From Thermoanaerobaculia bacterium (GTDB lineage Bacteria > Acidobacteriota > Thermoanaerobaculia > Multivoradales > Multivoraceae): DNA of 64,000 bases. Each line of letters starts with the position of its first letter. Position 1 is the first letter of the stretch. The stretch spans positions 4,192,001-4,256,000 of the forward strand of contig OY761158.1 of NCBI GenBank assembly GCA_963664405.1, written 5' to 3'. The translations under genes were made by a program, and so were the position numbers. The notes below the pieces were generated by a model. That model searched no databases. It saw nothing but the letters and a program-made list of their open reading frames with translations, and was not told where the DNA came from. Below are positions 1 through 46,173 of this stretch, piece after piece.

Positions 1-174
1 GCTCGCTTGCTCTCGCTCCTCGCGGTGGACGGGGATCTGCTCTATTCGGGGGCGATGATGGAGCAGGAGCCACAGGTTTTGAAAGTGCTCCGGCAGCACG
101 GTCTGGAAGCAGTCGGAGTGCGCACGGACGGTCTCTGGGGGGCGTGGCGGCTGCGGCGGGAGGGTCGAGCGTGA
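1..174 (+). CDS. prmA: 3' end of probable ribosomal protein L11 methyltransferase (partial, runs off window)
   Basis: Frame 1 reads ARLLSLLAVDGDLLYSGAMMEQ...DGLWGAWRLRREGRA*, like the PrmA C-terminus. Its TGA overlaps the rsmE GTG, and prmA-rsmE is a common gene pair. Confidence 0.6.
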   Translation, partial: ARLLSLLAVDGDLLYSGAMMEQEPQVLKVLRQHGLEAVGVRTDGLWGAWRLRREGRA

Positions 175-869
175 CGACCACCGCGTTGGTTTCGAGCGAT
201 GAGCTCACGCGGGAAAGCCTCAAGATCTCCGGAGAGGCCTTCCACCATCTCTTTCGGGCGGCCAGGTTGCGGGTTGGCGAGCGTCTTCGACTCACGGACG
301 GCAGGGGGGGATCCCGATGGAGTGTGGTTGGCCGCGTCGAGCGGCATAGTGCGTTCTTGACCTTGGAGAACGAGGCTCCGTCGAATGACCCTGATCTGGC
401 GGTCGAGCTGGTGATCGCGCCTCCCAAGGCGAGCCGCGCCTCGTGGATGGTCGAGAAGGGTACGGAGCTCGGCGTACGGGCCTTTCACTTCTTCAAGTGC
501 GAGCGCACTTCCCGCGAATTTGGGGCGGCGAATCTGGATCGACTGCGGCGAGTCGCAAGGTCGGCCCTCGAACAGAGTAACGGGTCTTGGCTACCCGAAG
601 TGACCGGGATGCATTCTCTCGAACAAGTGATAGCTGATCTTCGAGCGTCACCGCATTTGTTCGTTCTCGACCCGGAGAGCCCTCCAAGCGGCGGCAAGGA
701 GAGTGGAGGAGGGGTTTGCGTTGTCATCGGGCCCGAGGGTGGGCTGACGCCCGCAGAGCTGAAAATGCTGATCGAGGGAGGCTTCGAGAGCTGGGGCTTG
801 GGGCCGCGGGTGTTGAGGGTCGAGACGGCGGCGATCGCCGCCGCTGCGGCTCTTTTGGTCGGAGCCTAG
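171..869 (+). CDS. rsmE: 16S rRNA m3U1498 methyltransferase RsmE
   Basis: Motifs HHLFRAARL, EKGTELGV, EQS, IGPEGG and LGPRVLRVETAA. Start placed at GTG 171, overlapping the upstream stop. Confidence 0.93.
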   Translation: MTTTALVSSDELTRESLKISGEAFHHLFRAARLRVGERLRLTDGRGGSRWSVVGRVERHSAFLTLENEAPSNDPDLAVELVIAPPKASRASWMVEKGTELGVRAFHFFKCERTSREFGAANLDRLRRVARSALEQSNGSWLPEVTGMHSLEQVIADLRASPHLFVLDPESPPSGGKESGGGVCVVIGPEGGLTPAELKMLIEGGFESWGLGPRVLRVETAAIAAAAALLVGA

Positions 870-956
870 CCCCAGAAAACGCGCCTTCGGCCCGTTTCCC
901 GGCCCATCCCCGCCTGAGAATTACTCGCCTGTCCGAATTCTCGGACACGCTCCTAG
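866..956. mobile_element. 87-bp CTAG-bounded hairpin repeat element, copy 1 (MITE/REP-like)
   Basis: CTAG at 866-869 and 953-956. Colinear and gap-free with the reverse complement of 17497-17587. Two internal hairpins. Confidence 0.85.
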
Positions 957-16222: not shown

Positions 16223-17899
16223 TCAGTGCAGAAGGGGCTTCATGACCGGCCGCTGCTGCGCATATCGCGCCAGGTGGTCGTCGATTACGGTGGTGAGCGC
16301 CGGATCCCCTTGGGCCAGCTCCCGGGCCCTCAGAGCGACACGGGTGGCATCACCGAAGCGTCCGTTGGCTGCATAGGCGATGCCGAAGAGGTCGGCGCAC
16401 GCCGCATCGTGGCGATGGGTGCTGTAGAGCCGCTGCGCCAGGTCCAGAGACTCCGCCTCCTCCTCCTCCGAGATCGGTCTCGAAGTCGCCAGAAGCATGG
16501 CCAGATTGAAGGCGGTACCGATCTCCTCAGGCTGCTGTCCGAGAATCTGCCTCAAGGTCTCCTTGGCAGCGCCGAGGTCGGCCAACTCGATCTCGAGTCG
16601 GGCGAGAGGCCTCAGATTGGGCAGGTGATCCGGCGCCAGCATTGCCAGCTGCCGGCGGGCTTCGAGCGCCTGGTGAAACGACTCCTGCCCCGCAAACGCC
16701 ACGGCCAGATCCGCGTAGGCGAGGTATCGTGTCGGTTCCGCTGCCAGTGCCCTTTCGAGAGGCTCGATCGCATCCCGGAAACGTTCTTGCCGATTGCGAA
16801 GCTGACCCAGCGCGAGATGAGCGCCGGGGTGGTCGGGCCGTCGTTCGAGGGCGAGCGCGAGCGCACGCTCCGTCGCCGCCAGTTCGCCGAGCTGCAACCA
16901 GGCGTCGGCGAGCCCTACCTGAAGGTCCGCGTTCTGCGGCGCCTTTTGCAGGCCCGCCTGGAAGTGCTCGATGGCATCTCGGCTCCGACCCTGGGCGAGC
17001 GCGACCCTACCCAGGTCGTTCAGCGCCTCACCGCTGGTGTCGAGTCTCGAGGCCTCCTCGAACAGCGCACGGGCCTCTTCATCATCGCCTCGGGCCGAGA
17101 GGCGCCGGCCACGGTCGAGGAGGGCGCCGGCACTGATGCCTTGGGCGCGCATCTGATCGACCACGTCGCTCACCGGTCGCAGCCCCGCGCCGTAGGAGCG
17201 GGCTTGCCAGGCAGCTTCGGCCGCGCCGGCGGCATCTCCGATCTGTTGCCGAGCCTGCGCAAGCAAGCGGTAGAGATCCCCGTTTTTCGAGGTGCGGAGC
17301 CGCTCTGCTTCGAGAAGCTCGAGCGCGTCCTCGACCCGTCCCTCGACCAGAGCGATGCGCCCGAGGCCGAGCTGTGCGTGCTGCCGCGCCGATTCAGTGG
17401 CACCGGTCTTCCGATAGACGGCACGAGCCTGATCCAGCCGACCGGCTCGGGTCAGCGCGCTGGCGTAGGTCAGGCTCAGGGCGACGTCTTCTGGGGCCAG
17501 GAGCGTGTCCGAGAATTCGGACGGGCGAGTGGTTCTCAGGCGGGGATGGGCCGAGGAGTGGGCCGCGGGCCCATTCCTCGGGGCTAGCGCATGCGCCTTT
17601 GCCAAGAGATCGAGCGCGGCGTCTGCCGGCCGGTCGGTGAGCGCTGCGAGGTATGGCCAGCGGTAGTCCGCGGGCGGGCGCGCCATCGCTTCGAGGTAAC
17701 TCTCGTAAGCCTCGATCTCGAGCCCGTGCGCGTGGAGCACCATGGCGAGCTCCCCCCAGGCTTCGCCCGTTCCCGGGCTTTCGGCGACGGCGGCTCGGGC
17801 AGACGCGATGCGTGCGGCGACCTGCGGCTGCAGATCGACAGCTCCGGATCGCGTTACCAAGGCGAGACCTGCCCACAGCACTAGCGGCGCAACCCTCAA
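16223..17899 (-). CDS. Tetratricopeptide-repeat protein, secreted, carrying an in-frame 29-aa element insertion
   Basis: Many TPR units. TTG 17899 overlaps the upstream stop and is followed by a hydrophobic signal segment. Confidence 0.85.
   Translation of the reverse strand: MRVAPLVLWAGLALVTRSGAVDLQPQVAARIASARAAVAESPGTGEAWGELAMVLHAHGLEIEAYESYLEAMARPPADYRWPYLAALTDRPADAALDLLAKAHALAPRNGPAAHSSAHPRLRTTRPSEFSDTLLAPEDVALSLTYASALTRAGRLDQARAVYRKTGATESARQHAQLGLGRIALVEGRVEDALELLEAERLRTSKNGDLYRLLAQARQQIGDAAGAAEAAWQARSYGAGLRPVSDVVDQMRAQGISAGALLDRGRRLSARGDDEEARALFEEASRLDTSGEALNDLGRVALAQGRSRDAIEHFQAGLQKAPQNADLQVGLADAWLQLGELAATERALALALERRPDHPGAHLALGQLRNRQERFRDAIEPLERALAAEPTRYLAYADLAVAFAGQESFHQALEARRQLAMLAPDHLPNLRPLARLEIELADLGAAKETLRQILGQQPEEIGTAFNLAMLLATSRPISEEEEAESLDLAQRLYSTHRHDAACADLFGIAYAANGRFGDATRVALRARELAQGDPALTTVIDDHLARYAQQRPVMKPLLH
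17497..17587. mobile_element. 87-bp hairpin repeat element, copy 2, inserted in frame in the TPR gene
   Basis: Reverse complement runs CTAG...CTGG and aligns without gaps to 866-956. It encodes LAPRNGPAAHSSAHPRLRTTRPSEFSDTL. Confidence 0.85.
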
Positions 17900-19530
17900 G
17901 GCGACACTCCCTCTCCGCGGACGAGCACGAGGTGGCGGTTGATACCGGGGACGGGAAACGCTTCTCGATGACCGTCCGGCCATCGCACCACGAGAGCGCT
18001 GGCCTGCGTCGCCTCCCCGAGGCCGAAGTGAACCGTGGCCTCGCGGCTCGACAGGTAGCTGCGGGTGTGTGTGATCGGCCGCGCCAGCCAGCGGTCCCCG
18101 ATCTGCAACTCCACTACCCCGCCAATGGCATCCCACTTCCCGCGCGCCGTCATGGGTGACGGCACAAGCGCACGCACGGCGAGCCAGTTCCCGGTCACGG
18201 AAGCACGGTTCTCATACACCCTTGCCCGGCCGTTGGCATTGGCAAGAACCAGATCCAAATCGCCATCGCGGTCCAGATCTGCCGCCAGCAACCCTCGGCC
18301 CACCGAGCGGTCCGCACAAAAAGGGTTCGCATCGCAAGACACCTCGAACCGGCCGCTGCCGTCATTGGCGAGGAGCAGATTGGGCTCTCCGTAGATGGAC
18401 TCGAAGGAGGCCCCCGCCGGGAGGGTCCTGGTGGGGCGTCGCACCCGCCCGTTGGCGATCGCCAGGTCCAGGTCCCCATCCAGGTCGAAGTCGAGGAAGG
18501 CGGTGCCGAACCCGGTCAACGGCAGGCTCACCCGTCCCAGGTCCGATCGGATGGTGGCGTCCAACATCGCGTCGTTCGGGCCGCTCAGGTAGAGCGTGTT
18601 GGACTCGCGATCGACGTGGGTCAGGAAGAGGTCCATCTGCAGATCGTCGTTGAGATCACCGAGCGCGATCCCCATTCCGGCTTCGGACTCCCCGAAGAGG
18701 TTGGTGGCCACCCCCATTTCCGTGCCGCGTTCGGCAAAGCTCCCGCCACCCTGATTGATCCAGAGGTGATTCGGCGTGCCGTCGTTGGCGACGAAGACGT
18801 CGGCACGGCCGTCGGAGTCGAAGTCGTGGCAGACGACACCCAGGGTGGGGGAGTTAGCCTTCGAGATCCCGCTCGAAACGCCCGTGTCTTCGAAGGCGCC
18901 GTTTCCCAGGTTCCGGTAGAGCCGATCGGCGACGCCGGGGTAGACGTTGGGTGGGCAGTAGTCCCGGGCTCCGGCTTTGGTTGTGCATCGTTGATGGGCG
19001 TCCGAGCGCAGGTAGCTACCGACATAGAGATCGAGCAGACCGTCCATATCGATGTCGCAGAAGGCGGCCGAGGAGGACCAGGACGCCGCGTCGATGCCGG
19101 ATGAAGGTGTTATGTCACTGAAGGTACCATCGCCGTTGTTCCGGTAGAGCTGATCGCGCCCGACATGGGTGAGGTAGACGTCCAGATCGCCGTCGTTGTC
19201 GATGTCGCCGAGTGCGATTCCCATGCCGTATCCGGGCGACTCCAGACCGGCAGCGTGGGTCGCGTCCTGGTAGATGCCGCCGGCGGTCTGGCGGTAGAGC
19301 CGTGGTCCCCGGGGTGGGGCACCGGCGAAGAGGATGTCAGGCAAGCCGTCGCCATCGGAGTCGAAGATCGCGACACCGGCGCCCATGATCTCGGAGAGCC
19401 GATGATCTTCTGTTGGCGCCGCCGAATGTCGAAAGTCGATGCCGACGGCATCGGTAACGTCGACGAAGGTGTGGGGCTGGGCCCAGGCAGCAACCGAGAA
19501 GGTCAGCGCCAGGAATCCTCCAGCAGACCG
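17896..19530 (-). CDS. CRTAC1/ASPIC-UnbV family protein with FG-GAP-like repeats (start uncertain)
   Basis: Repeated DxDxDGxxD motifs and C-terminal HFGLG..VRWPDG. The frame continues upstream of ATG 19386 (FLALTFSVAAWAQPHTFVDVT...) with no ATG/GTG/TTG. Confidence 0.85.
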   Translation of the reverse strand, partial: RSAGGFLALTFSVAAWAQPHTFVDVTDAVGIDFRHSAAPTEDHRLSEIMGAGVAIFDSDGDGLPDILFAGAPPRGPRLYRQTAGGIYQDATHAAGLESPGYGMGIALGDIDNDGDLDVYLTHVGRDQLYRNNGDGTFSDITPSSGIDAASWSSSAAFCDIDMDGLLDLYVGSYLRSDAHQRCTTKAGARDYCPPNVYPGVADRLYRNLGNGAFEDTGVSSGISKANSPTLGVVCHDFDSDGRADVFVANDGTPNHLWINQGGGSFAERGTEMGVATNLFGESEAGMGIALGDLNDDLQMDLFLTHVDRESNTLYLSGPNDAMLDATIRSDLGRVSLPLTGFGTAFLDFDLDGDLDLAIANGRVRRPTRTLPAGASFESIYGEPNLLLANDGSGRFEVSCDANPFCADRSVGRGLLAADLDRDGDLDLVLANANGRARVYENRASVTGNWLAVRALVPSPMTARGKWDAIGGVVELQIGDRWLARPITHTRSYLSSREATVHFGLGEATQASALVVRWPDGHREAFPVPGINRHLVLVRGEGVSP

Positions 19531-29067: not shown

Positions 29068-30531
29068 ATGCCCATCATACCGTTGCAGGAACAGCACTTA
29101 GCTCCCCGGCCCACTGAGCTGGAGCACTTCGGTACCGCTCTCGGTATCTCCCGCGATGGCCGTGTCATGGTCGTCGGTACCGAGGCGCTGGCGCGCGACC
29201 CCAATCATTTGGGCGACGTCTTACAGGACCTTGCGGGACGCATCTACGTCATCATTCGCAACGACGCTCGGGCAGTGGTGGCTACCGAGCCGATCCCCGG
29301 GCCCGTGCCGCCCGACGGTCACTGGTTCGGTGCCACCGCGGCCGTTTCTCCGGATGGCGAGCAGATCATCGTCGGCGACTGGGGTACAGGCAAGGCTTGG
29401 GTCTATACGAGGCGCGGCGAACTGGGCCCCGGCAACGAATGGAATCACCCTCCGGCCGAGCTCGTACCCGACCCTCGGGTCGAAGAGAGCCATTTCGGCC
29501 ATACGGTCTCCATCGCCGATGGGCACGTTGCGGCCGTCGGCGCGCTGAACTCCTCTACCGATACGCGCGAGGCGGGGATGGCGATTGGTGGGGTCCACAT
29601 CTTCCGCGACATCACCAGACCTGACGGCGTTGAGGGCTGGCAGCAGGAAGCTCTGCTCCAGCCGCCTCCGGTAATCAACGACCAGGACCCTTGGATCTCG
29701 CACTTCGGCAAGGCGATCGAGCTCTCGGCCGATGGCGGCCGGATTTTGGTGGGATCCTTCCTTCGGCGCGACCGGGTGACTGGAGCGGGTCGCGCCTACG
29801 TCTACCGCTTTGGCGGCAATCCGATCGCCGTGAACTGGAATCTCGAAGCGACCCTGCAGGCTTCTGCGGACGAGGATTTCGACGACTTCGGGAGATCGGT
29901 TGGACTCTCGCTGAATGGGTCGACGGCCTGTGTAGGCGCCCCACGGTTTCGCGATCTCGATGTCGATCGCCGAGGCGCAGCCTTCGTCTTCCACCAGGTC
30001 CAGGGGTGGCAGCGGCCGGTGCGGTTGCAGCGAAGCGACGTCGGGGAGAGGGAAAACGAGCTGGGGATTTCGGTCTCGCTGTCCGACGCGGGTCGTTCCG
30101 CACTGGTCGGCGCTCAGGCCGTCGAGGTGGCGACGAGACTCGACAGCCACGCCGCCTACTTGTTCACCACCGATGTCGGTATCCCGTGGCGCGAGCACGC
30201 CATCCTTAGCCCTGTTCCCGAGTTGACTGCCGATGCGGAGGCGGGCCACAACGTCGCCTTGTCGAGAGATGGTGTCGAGATGGCGGTCTCCGCCCGTCGC
30301 GCTCCTGCCCCCGACGACCCCGGCCCTCCCGAGAGGGGAGCTCTGCGGTGGGCCGGCATCGTCTTTACGGGCGCCGCGCCTGGTGGTGGAGACGAGAGAC
30401 GGGAGAGGAATCAGCGCGACATCATTGATGGCGCGCGCCCGGGGCTCGGTCGCTTCGGGCGCTTCGGTCGTCTTATCGGCCGTCTCGGCCGGTGGATTCG
30501 CGGCCTGGGCCGCGGCGGTGTCAACCCCTAG
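29068..30531 (+). CDS. FG-GAP / integrin-alpha-like beta-propeller repeat protein
   Basis: About 7 repeats of FG.xvalS.DG..vG (HFGTALGISRDG, WFGATAAVSPDG, HFGKAIELSADG, DFGRSVGLS...). Start uncertain. Confidence 0.8.
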   Translation: MPIIPLQEQHLAPRPTELEHFGTALGISRDGRVMVVGTEALARDPNHLGDVLQDLAGRIYVIIRNDARAVVATEPIPGPVPPDGHWFGATAAVSPDGEQIIVGDWGTGKAWVYTRRGELGPGNEWNHPPAELVPDPRVEESHFGHTVSIADGHVAAVGALNSSTDTREAGMAIGGVHIFRDITRPDGVEGWQQEALLQPPPVINDQDPWISHFGKAIELSADGGRILVGSFLRRDRVTGAGRAYVYRFGGNPIAVNWNLEATLQASADEDFDDFGRSVGLSLNGSTACVGAPRFRDLDVDRRGAAFVFHQVQGWQRPVRLQRSDVGERENELGISVSLSDAGRSALVGAQAVEVATRLDSHAAYLFTTDVGIPWREHAILSPVPELTADAEAGHNVALSRDGVEMAVSARRAPAPDDPGPPERGALRWAGIVFTGAAPGGGDERRERNQRDIIDGARPGLGRFGRFGRLIGRLGRWIRGLGRGGVNP

Positions 30532-30694
30532 TGTCCTGTATCAGTGGTTCGTTGCATAAATCGCGGAGTCATTTTGGGTGCTGCCAAGGCGCTACGACGA
30601 AGGTATATTGGGCAATATTGCGAGGAGGAGCAACGACGGCAGCGCGCAAAAGGGCCAGCGAGTTGTGTGACGAACTACTGATACAGGACACTGG
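30528..30694. mobile_element. 163-bp palindromic MITE
   Basis: Terminal IRs TGTCCTGTATCAGTGGTTCGT / ACGAACTACTGATACAGGACA, flanked by CTAG and CTGG. Internal imperfect palindrome. Confidence 0.88.
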
Positions 30695-30733
30695 TCCGGG
30701 TCCTCTGGAAGCAGGTGGGCGACGACCGTGCGC

Positions 30734-42969: not shown

Positions 42970-44304
42970 ATGCCCCTCTTCGAGAGTGACGAAGAAGAGA
43001 CGCCTTCGGGGCCGGAGCCCGGTACTCCGTTGGCGGAGCGCATGCGCCCGAGGACGGTGGACGAGCTTGTAGGCCAAAGTGCGGTCGCGGGTCCCGATGG
43101 CTTTCTGCGCCGCGCGCTGCGGGAGGATCGGGTTCCTTCGTTGATCTTCTGGGGCCCCCCGGGATGCGGAAAGACCACTCTGGCTCGCATCATCGCGAGC
43201 GAGAGCGACTCCTTCTTCGTCTCTTTCAGCGCTGTCACTTCCGGCATCAAGGAGATCAAAGAGGTGATGCGAGACGCGGCGCGGCTTCGTCGCTCTCAGC
43301 GCAGGCTCACCCTGGTGTTTATCGACGAGATCCACCGTTTCAACAAGGCGCAGCAGGATGCCTTCCTGCCTTATGTTGAAAGAGGAGAGATTGTGCTTGT
43401 CGGCGCCACCACCGAGAACCCGTCGTTCGAGCTGAACAACGCGCTGCTCTCGCGCTGCAGAGTCGTGGTGCTCGAGGCACTGGGTGTTGACGAGCTCGTT
43501 CTCCTTCTCGAGCGCGCTCTCTCTGACCCGGATCGCGGTCTCGGAAAGATCGAGGTCGAGGTCGAGGACGATGCACTCGCGGCGATCGCACACCTGGTCT
43601 CGGGAGACGCTCGCAGTGCGCTGAATATCCTCGAGCTCTCGGTTGCGGACACACCCACGGGTCGCAGCCTGAGTGCCGCTACCGTTGCGCAGGTTGCGCA
43701 GCGAAAGATCTTGCTCTACGACAAGGCGGGCGAGGAGCACTTCAACCTCATCTCCGCCCTTCACAAGTCGCTCCGCGAGAGCGAGCCCGATGCCTCGCTC
43801 TATTGGCTCGAGCGGATGCTCCAAGGAGGCGAGGACGCCAACTACGTGGCCCGTCGACTGGTCCGCTTCGCGGCAGAAGACGTCGGGCTGGCGGACCCTC
43901 AAGCGTTGTCGCTCAGTCTTGCCGCTTGGGAGACTTATCAGAGACTCGGCTCTCCCGAGGGCGAGATCGCGTTGGCACAGGCCGTCCTTTACCTCGCGCT
44001 GGCGCCGAAGAGCATCGCCGTCTACAGGGCTCAGAAGGCCGCACGCAAGGCGATCGCAGACTATCCGGCCGAGCCGGTTCCGCACGCTATTCGCAACGCG
44101 CCCACCGCTCTGATGAAGGACCTGGGTTACGGCAAGGACTATGTGTACGGACCGGATACCGAGCAGGGGATGGCCGGTCTCGAGTGCCTTCCGGAGTCTG
44201 TGCGTGGGGCCCGCTTCTACCGCCCGGGAGCGGCTGGGCTCGAGAAGGCGCTAGCCGAGCGCATCGAAGAGCTCGACTCGCTGCGGCGGCGCCTCAGGAA
44301 ATGA
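42970..44304 (+). CDS. rarA: Replication-associated recombination protein A (RarA/MgsA)
   Basis: PLAERMRP, WGPPGCGKTT, DEIHRFNKAQQD, ISALHKS. Confidence 0.95.
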   Translation: MPLFESDEEETPSGPEPGTPLAERMRPRTVDELVGQSAVAGPDGFLRRALREDRVPSLIFWGPPGCGKTTLARIIASESDSFFVSFSAVTSGIKEIKEVMRDAARLRRSQRRLTLVFIDEIHRFNKAQQDAFLPYVERGEIVLVGATTENPSFELNNALLSRCRVVVLEALGVDELVLLLERALSDPDRGLGKIEVEVEDDALAAIAHLVSGDARSALNILELSVADTPTGRSLSAATVAQVAQRKILLYDKAGEEHFNLISALHKSLRESEPDASLYWLERMLQGGEDANYVARRLVRFAAEDVGLADPQALSLSLAAWETYQRLGSPEGEIALAQAVLYLALAPKSIAVYRAQKAARKAIADYPAEPVPHAIRNAPTALMKDLGYGKDYVYGPDTEQGMAGLECLPESVRGARFYRPGAAGLEKALAERIEELDSLRRRLRK

Positions 44305-44310
44305 TGGCTA

Positions 44311-46173
44311 TCACTTTCGCAGGTTAGCGACGCTCGCCTTGCCGGAGTCGCTCTGCGAGAGGACTTCCAGGATCTGGCGCTGGCGCAGTAGCTCGGGAAA
44401 CAAATGAGGATCCAGGCCTGGCCGGTAGAGCAGGTAGAAGGGCACGCTGTAGCGGCCGAAGTCGGCGAGGAGGGTAGCGATCTCGTCGTTGCGGTTGGTC
44501 CAATCCGCACGCATCGGGACGACGTCGTGCTTTGCGAAGGCGTCCGCTACCTCCTGGGTCTCCAGCACCAAGCGCTCGTTCACTTTGCAGGTGAAGCACC
44601 AGTCCGCGGTGACGTCGACAAAGACGAGCTTGCCCTGTTCGGCGAGAGCCTCCGCCTCGCTGCGATCGAACTCCGACCAGCCGATGAGGCCGACGTTCTC
44701 CTTGGCGACGCCGGCGCTCACCTGCCCGCCCCAGCCGCTCAGGGCCAGGGTCGCAATGATGGCGGCGACGGAGCCGACACGCGCAACGACCCGCCCCCTC
44801 ACCGAGCTCGAGGTAGCCGTTAGCCAGACGAAGAGAGCGAGCACCAGCAGGCCGACCTCGATGAAGGCGACCCGCTCCGGACGAACCTGTGCGGCCAGGA
44901 CGTAGAGCAGCCAGACCGCTGCCCCAGCGAGAAGGAACCCCATGGTCATCTTCAGCTGCATCATCCACATTCCGGGCTTGGGGAGCCACGAGACGCTGCC
45001 GGGAGCGGCCGCCAAGGCTAGATAGGGGGCCGACATGCCAATGGCGATGGCGGTGAAGACCGCCAGAATCGTCCCTCCGCTCTGGCTGAGGCCGAAGCCG
45101 ACAGCCGTGCCCAGAAAGGGCGCTGAGCATGGCGTTGCCATGAGGGTGGCGAAAAGCCCGGTGGCGAAGTGTCCGAGAACACCGTCGTGGGTTCCGCCGT
45201 CGCCAAATTGCGCCAGGCGCCTGGGCAGTGGAACTTCGAAGATCCCCCATAGATTGAGGCAGAAGAGCACCACCACGATGACCAGGAGAGTGACGAAGGT
45301 CGGATTCTGAAACTGGATACCCCAGCCGACCAGTCCACCGGCAGCCCTAGCCACGATGGCGAGGATGGCGAGAATCCAGAAGGAGACGAGGATTCCGGCT
45401 GAGGTCGCCAAACCACCGATCACCACGCTGCGCCGACCCTTGCCGGCCTTCTGCACGAGTCCGAAGAGCTTGAGAGAAAGAACGGGGAGAACACAGGGCA
45501 TCGCATTGAGGATCACGCCGCCCAGAAGGCCGAGGGCAAGGATGCTGAGCAAACCTGCGGCATCGACCTGCGCGCTGTCGCCGCCTGGACCCTGCGTATC
45601 GTCGCCTACCACGGTAAAAAGGCCGGTGTGCTGGAGCTCGCCCTCCTCACCGATGCTCAGTCGGAGGTTGGCGGTGGCCTCGGTTGGCGGTAGGCAGGTT
45701 CTCTCGTCACAAGCTTGATAGCGGAGACGCGCCTCCACCTCTCCGACGGGGCGATCGAATCCCTTAGGAATCACCACCGATGCGAGGATGTTCGTGGTCC
45801 CCTCGAACACCGCTAGGGGCTCCTCTTCGAACTCGGAGCTCCAGAAGATGTGATCCGGGTACTCGATCTTGGCTTCCGCCCATCCCGAGGGCAGCCGGAG
45901 CTCTAGTTGAGTCGGAATCAAATAGTCGAAGCTGGGGGTGTTGCTCTGGATGTGCCAGCCCGGATCCACCTCGATCGTGGCCGCGATCCTGGCTTCGCCG
46001 CCGGCGAGATAGGCGCTGCGATCGGTGGCGAGTTCGAGCTTTGCCTTCTCGATCGGCGGGCGTTGGGCGGAGGCCTGTTGGCTGGAGCCGACGGAGATCA
46101 GAGCCAGCGCCACGAGGACTGCGCGCAGCCGCCGTCGTTGCGAAGCGCTCTGGTGCCGTTCGTTCAGGCGCAT
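44311..46173 (-). CDS. dsbD: DsbD-family thiol:disulfide interchange protein
   Basis: N-domain QACDERTC, TM motifs MPCVLPV and TPCSAP, thioredoxin WCFTC. Confidence 0.9.
   Translation of the reverse strand: MRLNERHQSASQRRRLRAVLVALALISVGSSQQASAQRPPIEKAKLELATDRSAYLAGGEARIAATIEVDPGWHIQSNTPSFDYLIPTQLELRLPSGWAEAKIEYPDHIFWSSEFEEEPLAVFEGTTNILASVVIPKGFDRPVGEVEARLRYQACDERTCLPPTEATANLRLSIGEEGELQHTGLFTVVGDDTQGPGGDSAQVDAAGLLSILALGLLGGVILNAMPCVLPVLSLKLFGLVQKAGKGRRSVVIGGLATSAGILVSFWILAILAIVARAAGGLVGWGIQFQNPTFVTLLVIVVVLFCLNLWGIFEVPLPRRLAQFGDGGTHDGVLGHFATGLFATLMATPCSAPFLGTAVGFGLSQSGGTILAVFTAIAIGMSAPYLALAAAPGSVSWLPKPGMWMMQLKMTMGFLLAGAAVWLLYVLAAQVRPERVAFIEVGLLVLALFVWLTATSSSVRGRVVARVGSVAAIIATLALSGWGGQVSAGVAKENVGLIGWSEFDRSEAEALAEQGKLVFVDVTADWCFTCKVNERLVLETQEVADAFAKHDVVPMRADWTNRNDEIATLLADFGRYSVPFYLLYRPGLDPHLFPELLRQRQILEVLSQSDSGKASVANLRK

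Follow-up and report, generated by a model that had tools for sequence, protein, structure and literature searches.

The DNA analysed here, referred to below as the window, is a stretch of 64,000 nucleotides at positions 4,192,001-4,256,000 of the single 6.78-Mb contig of a genome labelled G000. On its minus strand lies a gene (16223..17899) for a TPR-repeat protein of 558 amino acids that matches Pfam TPR_19 and related families, and upstream of it is a gene for an FG-GAP/ASPIC-UnbV repeat protein (17896..19386, minus strand); this gene order is kept in each of the four syntenic relatives. Within the TPR gene and on the same strand, positions 17497..17587 contain a segment that runs from a CTAG (17587-17584) to a degenerate CTGG (17500-17497), encodes LAPRNGPAAHSSAHPRLRTTRPSEFSDTL within the TPR protein, and carries two stem-loops (17551..17581 and 17503..17526, both minus strand). 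An intergenic copy of this segment lies on the plus strand at 866..956, with CTAGs at 866-869 and 953-956; it abuts an RNA methyltransferase gene (144..869, plus strand; Methyltrans_RNA and PUA_4), whose TAG stop codon, 867-869, is the TAG of the left CTAG. A repeat search returns the two copies as the longest inverted pair in the window, with arms at 866-954 and 17499-17587 (89 nt, 83% complementary). The initial annotation had reported that the reverse complement of 17497-17587 aligns to 866-956 without gaps and that both copies have an 87-nt period from CTAG to CTAG or CTGG; the MAFFT alignment has no gaps (89 nt, 83%), and the period is present in both. Because the genome contains 79 nhmmer matches, and because the flanks outside the CTAGs are unrelated, the match between the two segments is far beyond chance. 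The 87-nt unit, CTAG to CTAG, is named Z here.

The 79 matches in the 6.78-Mb genome were identified by iterated nhmmer searches (E ≤ 1e-3), so the further copies that had been proposed as a check on the existence of a repeat family do exist. Forty-one copies are full length and score 81.7-93.5 bits; the intergenic copy in the window scores 88.6 bits and the TPR-gene copy 67.8. When the copies are aligned with 20 nt of flank, the common part is CTAG, 83 nt and a second CTAG, with unrelated sequence on either side. There are at least two subfamilies, plus a 78-nt variant with a shorter second hairpin. The segment had been called a hairpin element, and hairpins are indeed present; they do not form one long hairpin, but two separate stem-loops, at element positions 7-37 (stem-loop 1) and 62-85 (stem-loop 2), the second of which is a right-end module in common with a 92-nt family, Y. 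Folding z-scores are -3.25 for the TPR copy, -3.18 for the intergenic copy in the window and -2.79 for a copy in a PdxT gene described below. Among 19 copies from three genomes, 91.9% of cells in the stems pair, and at most 46.8% do so when the partners are slid; six pairs are altered on both sides, a number reached by only two of 500 shuffles. We find no terminal inverted repeats in Z, as comparison of the left end with the reverse-complemented right end yields CTAG alone (equalled by 500 of 500 shuffles), and none beyond CTAG in Y (382 of 500 shuffles score equally). No Rfam family reaches its gathering score anywhere in the 64,000-nt window, and for this repeat with its 79 matches the earlier statement that no named family was recognised holds.

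CTAG is under-represented in this genome (a Markov model predicts 12,769 sites, and there are 7502), and many unrelated elements nevertheless use this one four-base target, often coinciding with TAG stop codons. These include a 36-nt palindromic unit, X (296 matches), the 92-nt unit Y (153 matches), of which only the last ~25 nt are in common with Z, and a 166-nt MITE with terminal inverted repeats (314 terminal-repeat matches, forming 138 adjacent inverted pairs spaced 164-257 nt), all CTAG-bounded, as are further MITEs. Also bounded by CTAG are a 1562-bp IS5-like element that encodes DDE_Tnp_1, has terminal inverted repeats and is present in eight copies, and a 2706-bp element that encodes a Y2_Tnp plus Zn_Tnp_IS91 transposase and a tyrosine recombinase, of which the 166-nt MITE is an abundant derivative. 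X, Y and Z often abut one another in head-to-tail arrays with a single common CTAG. The genome itself provides empty and filled sites: the 166-nt MITE usually reads GCGCGC-CT(G/A/T)G-CCAGCG, and 11 composite MITE copies read CTAG-[74 nt of a Z variant]-CTAG-CCAGCG. CTAG flanks every intact Z copy on both sides, which fits a 4-nt target duplication and the insertion of an element with its own 3′ CTAG after a CTAG equally well.

The reading frame of the TPR gene had been described as staying open, and the minus-strand ORF 16223..18136 does read ...AKAHALAPRNGPAAHSSAHPRLRTTRPSEFSDTLLAPEDV... across the copy. The protein has an N-terminal hydrophobic leader, carries the insert at residues ~106-134, and is 100% identical to database protein P0001 (558 aa); the stretches with peptides that would be informative on translation of the insert are ...AHALAPRNGPAAH... 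and ...SEFSDTLLAPEDV.... The prediction of a clean 29-residue gap relative to orthologues is borne out by all seven homologues examined (33-72% identity), each of which shows a single 29-column gap, and the contrary outcome that had been named, orthologues all carrying the segment, is not observed, as the 29 residues are absent from seven of seven. Other than the genome's own protein, a protein search returned no relative above 72% identity. In the four syntenic orthologues both sides of the insert match as contiguous DNA, and the homologues read AHA immediately before the gap and L(G/D/E/A)P immediately after it; the ancestral site therefore read ...GCG CTA GCC CCA... and offered a CTAG. The duplication of Leu-Ala-Pro at the insert, also noted previously, is confirmed, and arises because the target read CTAG-CCCC and Z also begins with CTAG-CCCC.

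We conclude that 17497-17587 is very probably a copy of a lineage-restricted, non-autonomous mobile repeat, Z, that inserted in frame into the TPR gene at a CTAG. The ancestral gene would have read ...GCG CTA GCC CCA GAA... (Ala-Leu-Ala-Pro-Glu), and Z would have entered this CTAG in the sense orientation, leaving a CTAG on both sides; being 29 codons long and free of stops in the frame that it entered, it would have left the gene open, with 29 extra residues now encoded in the turn between two TPR helices. The converse reading, that the relatives lost 29 residues which the TPR family had from the start, or that the similarity to 866-956 is a coincidence, has in our estimation a vanishingly small probability: we found nothing in its favor, and against it are the gap-free DNA alignment to dozens of intergenic copies, the absence of the segment from every homologue down to 33% identity, and its boundaries at the family's CTAG sites.

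Few copies of the family have diverged as far as the one in the TPR gene (67.8 bits, and no more than 85.6% identical to any other copy), and the insertion is therefore old. Stem-loop 1 of this copy keeps 13 of 14 pairs; in three of them both partners differ from those of an ordinary intergenic copy, with pairing preserved. This stem sequence is found in no other copy in the genome, and the TPR copy looks like a fossil of an extinct Z subfamily. Contigs of 13 kb from runs of two studies cover the whole TPR gene, match it and its insert at every position and contain no joint bypassing the insert, although they may be the assembly's own source; contigs from four runs, in two of which the insert is spanned whole and which again may be that source, yielded no insert-free allele.

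An old insertion raises the question of whether the gene still makes a working protein. One could suppose that Z inactivated or crippled it, and that what stays open is a recent or neutral leftover encoding a non-functional product. In favor of this, the third intragenic copy in this genome sits in a split PQQ-dehydrogenase gene, and in a different genome, G004, a related copy breaks a thioesterase-like gene with a net 86 nt, out of frame. We consider this highly unlikely for the TPR gene, since the divergence of the copy marks the insertion as old and yet all 558 codons still form an unbroken frame, both halves of the gene keep coding signal and are ~70% identical to the nearest orthologue, and the change from CTA to CTG at the boundary is synonymous. 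The coding signal is in one frame on both sides of the insert (codon scores of 0.27/0.27 and 0.32/0.31). The AF2 model also retains the full TPR solenoid (mean pLDDT 88.7); in it, residues 110-134 fall below 50 and lie between helices 92-105 and 139-151, and the 29 added residues are thus most likely a disordered surface loop in the turn between two TPR helices, as far as can be judged from this model. We infer that the insert is translated and tolerated.

Two further Z copies lie within genes of this genome. A 78-nt variant is present in sense frame 3 in a PdxT gene (G000 5,573,880 onward; L024 581-662), the only PdxT match in the genome, where it adds ~26 residues after ...TCAGLIVLASRV, about ten residues past the catalytic cysteine motif. 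Neither of two orthologues has the PdxT insert, and the solved T. maritima PdxT chain 2iss_D lacks it too, running directly from residue 111 to residue 112. In a model that is itself weak (mean pLDDT 63.8), the insert (residues 95-116) has pLDDT below 50. The other copy is in antisense frame 3 in a PQQ-dehydrogenase gene (G000 897,993-898,103) that is split over at least three frames and is therefore a pseudogene. The related copy in G004 has an 85-nt period and is inserted at CTA-GGC, where the interrupted gene encodes its DxDxxGH motif region; by that motif we take the gene to encode a thioesterase. The earlier proposal that the repeat can add peptide segments to acidobacterial proteins finds support in the TPR and PdxT genes, both of which are intact and carry the repeat in frame.

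A CTAG inside a gene can be read only as CTA-G or xCT-AGx, which with two orientations gives four possible states for an inserted element. Among 35 exact 91-nt Z copies, sense frame 1 and antisense frame 3 are both open without exception and sense frame 3 is open in 34; antisense frame 1 is closed in every one. Each of the three open states is occupied, by the TPR gene (sense frame 1), the PdxT gene (sense frame 3) and the PQQ-dehydrogenase pseudogene (antisense frame 3). The unit length is a multiple of three, with 29 codons in the standard unit and 26 in the variant, and it is this length, together with freedom from stops in three of the four CTAG states, that accounts for the tendency of surviving insertions to be in frame. 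We note that the architecture cited for a possible wider class of X, Y and Z consists of these two properties and of hairpins that compensatory changes preserve even where a copy is old and coding.

The genomic placement of the family is nevertheless predominantly outside genes. Coding frames were called using codon log-odds learned from long ORFs, a model that finds the right frame in 97.5% of 300-nt test chunks, and the genic and intergenic counts that follow rest on these codon-score calls rather than on annotation, and could shift. Three of the 79 Z copies are intragenic, having an open frame through the copy and coding signal on both sides, and two of these three are in intact genes; the same criterion finds no intragenic copy among either the 296 X or the 153 Y matches. 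In at least 32 of the 79 the stop codon of the neighboring gene is the TAG of the bounding CTAG (31 by threshold, plus the 866-956 copy, which the threshold missed); a hand tally of stop-codon copies gives 19 in the same orientation as the upstream gene and 12 in the opposite one, with no clear bias. For comparison, of the 7163 CTAG sites outside X, Y and Z, 18.2% provide the stop of an ORF that looks coding, and 27.5% fall within a frame that does. Against this background, intragenic Z copies are depleted about ten-fold and stop-codon copies enriched about two-fold, a pattern that purifying selection on a CTAG-directed element would produce, and the intragenic copies appear to be rare survivors of such selection.

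These counts change how the family should be described. The label "protein-coding mobile repeat" given in the initial annotation does not fit a repeat of which only three of 79 copies are intragenic, one of those in a pseudogene, and of which at least 32 lie right behind TAG stop codons. The count of intragenic copies that had been suggested as a check comes out divided, adding two intact genes with in-frame copies (TPR and PdxT), but also a copy in a pseudogene and a large majority of intergenic ones. Given these figures and the out-of-frame copy in G004, Z is an intergenic repeat that genes tolerate now and then, and not a habitual colonizer of them.

The distribution of Z among other genomes is narrow. 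BLAST against 57 genomes of the family gives matches in four, and the element is carried only by G000 and by G004, which has nine copies of a diverged version; G001 and G045 each have one partial match of 23-29 nt. A covariance model run with strict filters, scoring 28 candidates in each of 151 genomes from the class, has a match in G000 only. A core-motif search of the genome contig set found four matching stretches in named Acidobacteriota/Thermoanaerobaculia MAG records. One of the genomes with such a stretch, G073, has two Z copies adjoining an IS110-family element that is 99.9% identical to copies of that element in G000, and no TPR orthologue was found in it.

Several routes by which Z may move were considered. 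Z and Y have no terminal inverted repeats, each has a subterminal 3′ hairpin, and they have only the 3′ end in common; head-to-tail arrays with a single common CTAG occur, and the genome contains the CTAG-bounded 2706-bp Y2 element with its abundant MITE derivative. Because of the missing terminal repeats, the 3′ hairpins, the tandem arrays and this resident element, our preference, a tentative one, is that Z may be mobilized in trans by a single-strand or rolling-circle HUH transposase, namely the IS91-type Y2 enzyme of the genome. Against this, the similarity of the ends is weak: the Z right end matches the IS91-like terminal repeat at nine of 16 anchored positions, which 42 of 2000 shuffles equal and which is not significant after ~30 comparisons, and local alignment of the Z ends with the IS91-like element is equalled by 43 of 500 shuffles. 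Moreover, the CTAG-bounded IS5-like element (1562 bp, eight copies) shows that a DDE enzyme with a CTAG target is also present. No larger element with Z ends was found in the genome, as all 21 right-end matches outside Z are Y units. The Z ends show no similarity to those of two other MITEs, and an abundant 2013-bp IS (26 near-full-length BLAST matches besides the query, and one copy in two pieces) has different ends and is unrelated. The Z copies show no replication-strand bias (38 versus 41, p 0.82, with origin and terminus placed by cumulative GC skew), which argues against a mechanism of the IS200/IS605 type, for which an orientation bias tied to the lagging-strand template would be expected.

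Could Z instead have been moved by the IS5-type DDE transposase, cut at CTAG with a 4-bp duplication in the manner of ordinary MITEs? The CTAG on both sides of every intact copy and the eight-copy, CTAG-bounded DDE_Tnp_1 element with its terminal inverted repeats are as this route would have them, and the published MITEPsy1 duplicates 4 nt on insertion at its CTAG or YTAA targets (PMC3189936). We nevertheless think it unlikely, because neither Z nor Y has terminal inverted repeats beyond CTAG (500 and 382 of 500 shuffles do as well) and the ends of both are unlike those of the IS5-like element (445-558 of 2000 shuffles are equal). Distinctly unlikely, in our judgment, is a third route, in which a RAYT-like Y1 transposase would spread Z as a repeat of the REP/BIME type, with CTAG beside stem-loop 1 in the role of GTAG. 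A conserved tetranucleotide does stand 2 nt ahead of a 31-nt imperfect palindrome, the copies are numerous, intergenic and arranged in mosaics with X (296) and Y (153), and 12 Y1_Tnp matches exceed the Pfam cut-off; but there is no REPtron, as none of the 12-13 Y1_Tnp genes is flanked by X, Y or Z (the nearest copies are 446 nt to 66 kb away), the tetranucleotide is CTAG and not GTAG, and what moves is a piece of 87 nt whose two hairpins are unlike, rather than a single palindrome or inverted doublet.

A bolder interpretation, which we regard as improbable, is that X, Y and Z constitute an undescribed class of CTAG-specific mobile units lacking terminal inverted repeats, whose architecture has been selected for survival inside genes, and which would be an acidobacterial counterpart of the Rickettsia palindromic elements (RPEs) that builds protein loops, even beside the active-site helix of PdxT, and is spread by a CTAG-directed HUH enzyme or by some other route. 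Apart from this, the TPR gene provides a clean and datable case in which a selfish repeat has given a protein an extra peptide loop, with a second case in the conserved enzyme PdxT, and the PQQ-dehydrogenase pseudogene and the out-of-frame insertion in G004 serve as natural controls. A fixed CTAG target, a unit of 3n length and three of four states open make for a simple arithmetic of in-frame survivors; the two proteins can be used to test how far a TPR solenoid and a glutaminase tolerate loop insertions, and units without terminal inverted repeats present a tractable puzzle for the biochemistry of transposition.

Comparison with known systems places Z as a new family of a known kind. A literature search (CTAG/MITE/REP repeats, stop codons, Acidobacteria) recovered no description of the family, although the print record may still contain one. 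Non-autonomous elements of the IS91/Helitron type lack terminal inverted repeats, carry a subterminal hairpin at the 3′ end, use a fixed target tetranucleotide, form tandem head-to-tail arrays, and fall into families that are alike only at the 3′ end. Z resembles them in having no terminal inverted repeats, a 3′ hairpin, a CTAG target, arrays, and a 3′ end in common with Y, with only weak similarity to the ends of the resident element. IS200/IS605-type elements have similar subterminal hairpins at both ends and no terminal inverted repeats, and insert 3′ of a fixed tetranucleotide; Z has no terminal inverted repeats and a fixed CTAG, but two hairpins that are unlike each other. REPs are a target for IS110-family elements, a role that Z fills as well. 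A REP is a palindrome of 20-50 nt with a conserved tetranucleotide, as a rule GTAG, ahead of it (PMC8266576); in Z, CTAG and 2 nt stand ahead of a 31-nt imperfect palindrome. REP/BIME repeats with their RAYT (TnpAREP) compare with Z in a tetranucleotide beside a GC-rich palindrome, multiple copies, an intergenic position just behind genes, and mosaics with other short modules (PMC8266576); Z differs in having CTAG, two unlike hairpins, no REPtron, and precise CTAG-bounded insertions of 87 nt.

Among CTAG-targeting MITEs, MITEPsy1 of the IS5 family is one (PMC3189936), and Z is similar in being small (87 nt), non-coding, multicopy (79) and flanked by CTAG on both sides, but unlike in having no terminal inverted repeats and no autonomous partner of matching ends in the genome. 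The intragenic ERIC and RU-1-3 elements of enterobacteria (Delihas 2007, PMC2759123) parallel Z in being mainly intergenic repeats of which a few copies are intragenic and supply open reading frame. They differ from Z in sequence, host and target site, and have TIR-like ends.

In-frame insertion of small repeats is already known from RPEs, intragenic ERIC and others, as stated in a review (PMC10969869), which gives RPEs as ~100-150 nt long and unusually frequent inside ORFs. Z differs from RPEs in host phylum, in length (87 nt against ~100-150 nt), in having a defined target, CTAG, and in that only three of its 79 copies are intragenic, whereas RPEs are unusually frequent inside ORFs (PMC10969869). 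The earlier designation of Z as RPE-like therefore does not extend to frequency or to membership, but it stands for the outcome, an in-frame peptide at a spot that the fold tolerates: the TPR insert lies between helices at pLDDT below 50, and the PdxT insert is likewise below 50, in a weaker model. Z and RPEs are alike as small structured repeats that can be found in frame in unrelated genes and contribute peptide where the fold tolerates it.

The 78-nt variant of the 87-nt CTAG-to-CTAG repeat lies in frame within the PdxT gene (locus L024, 581-662; G000:C1:5573880-5573961), which is the only PdxT gene of the genome. The insert comprises about 26 extra residues, approximately ten residues past the catalytic TCAG motif, and it is absent from two orthologues as well as from the solved PdxT chain of T. 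maritima. A third intragenic copy of the repeat is antisense within a PQQ-dehydrogenase gene (locus L041, 690-810; G000:C1:897993-898103); this copy contains an internal duplication of about 20 nt, the reading of the gene is split across at least three frames, and the gene is a pseudogene. In the compared genome G004, a thioesterase-like gene (locus L020) is broken at a CTA-GGC site by a related copy with an 85-nt period (1500-1588), and the net gain of 86 nt throws the reading out of frame. Either the gene is disrupted or the draft assembly is in error at this point.

Copies of the repeat are themselves entered by a member of the IS110 family, about 1.45 kb long (DEDD_Tnp_IS110 and Transposase_20; G000:C1:6026852-6028381 and 5487767-5489296, and also at locus L049). 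Two copies are hit at an identical point within stem-loop 2, the rest of the interrupted repeat, ACACGCTCCTAG, resuming after the element, and another (G000 3697419-3697499) is truncated at the same position beside a 71%-identical relative of the element. In G073, an otherwise unrelated genome, a 99.9% identical IS110-family element adjoins two copies of the repeat.

The genome contains 7502 CTAG sites where a Markov model predicts 12,769, and by a crude codon-score test stop codons coincide with 18% of the CTAG sites outside repeats. A 2013-bp IS (G000:C1:71656-73668, with terminal inverted repeats CTTAGGGTCGGCGCGGAAATAA) is unrelated to the CTAG-bounded units; in addition to the query copy, BLAST gives 26 near-full-length matches at 98.9-100% identity, plus one copy in two pieces, and the copy nearest to the window lies just past its end (window-relative 66464-68480).

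Two 2706-bp CTAG-bounded elements (G000:C1:6272417-6275122, locus L023, and G000:C1:6758844-6761549) have 20-nt terminal inverted repeats and encode an IS91-type Y2 transposase together with a tyrosine recombinase. The same ends recur in a 166-nt MITE family, which is abundant, with 314 terminal-repeat matches; the 78-nt variant rides as a passenger in 11 of the MITE copies. A second MITE with terminal inverted repeats, of a distinct family and about 165 nt long (window 30528-30695; CTAG-TGTCCTGTATCAGT...ACTGATACAGGACA-CTGG), gives 123 BLAST hit lines across the genome, the query copy counted. The window also holds one copy (44291-44327) of X, the 36-nt palindromic CTAG-bounded unit, which totals 296 hits in the genome. 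At G000:C1:1964959-1965347, X alternates head to tail with the 92-nt unit Y in an X-Y-X-Y-X-Y array of 128-nt period, in which neighbouring units have CTAG sites in common; such arrays would fit a mechanism able to run on beyond the element end.
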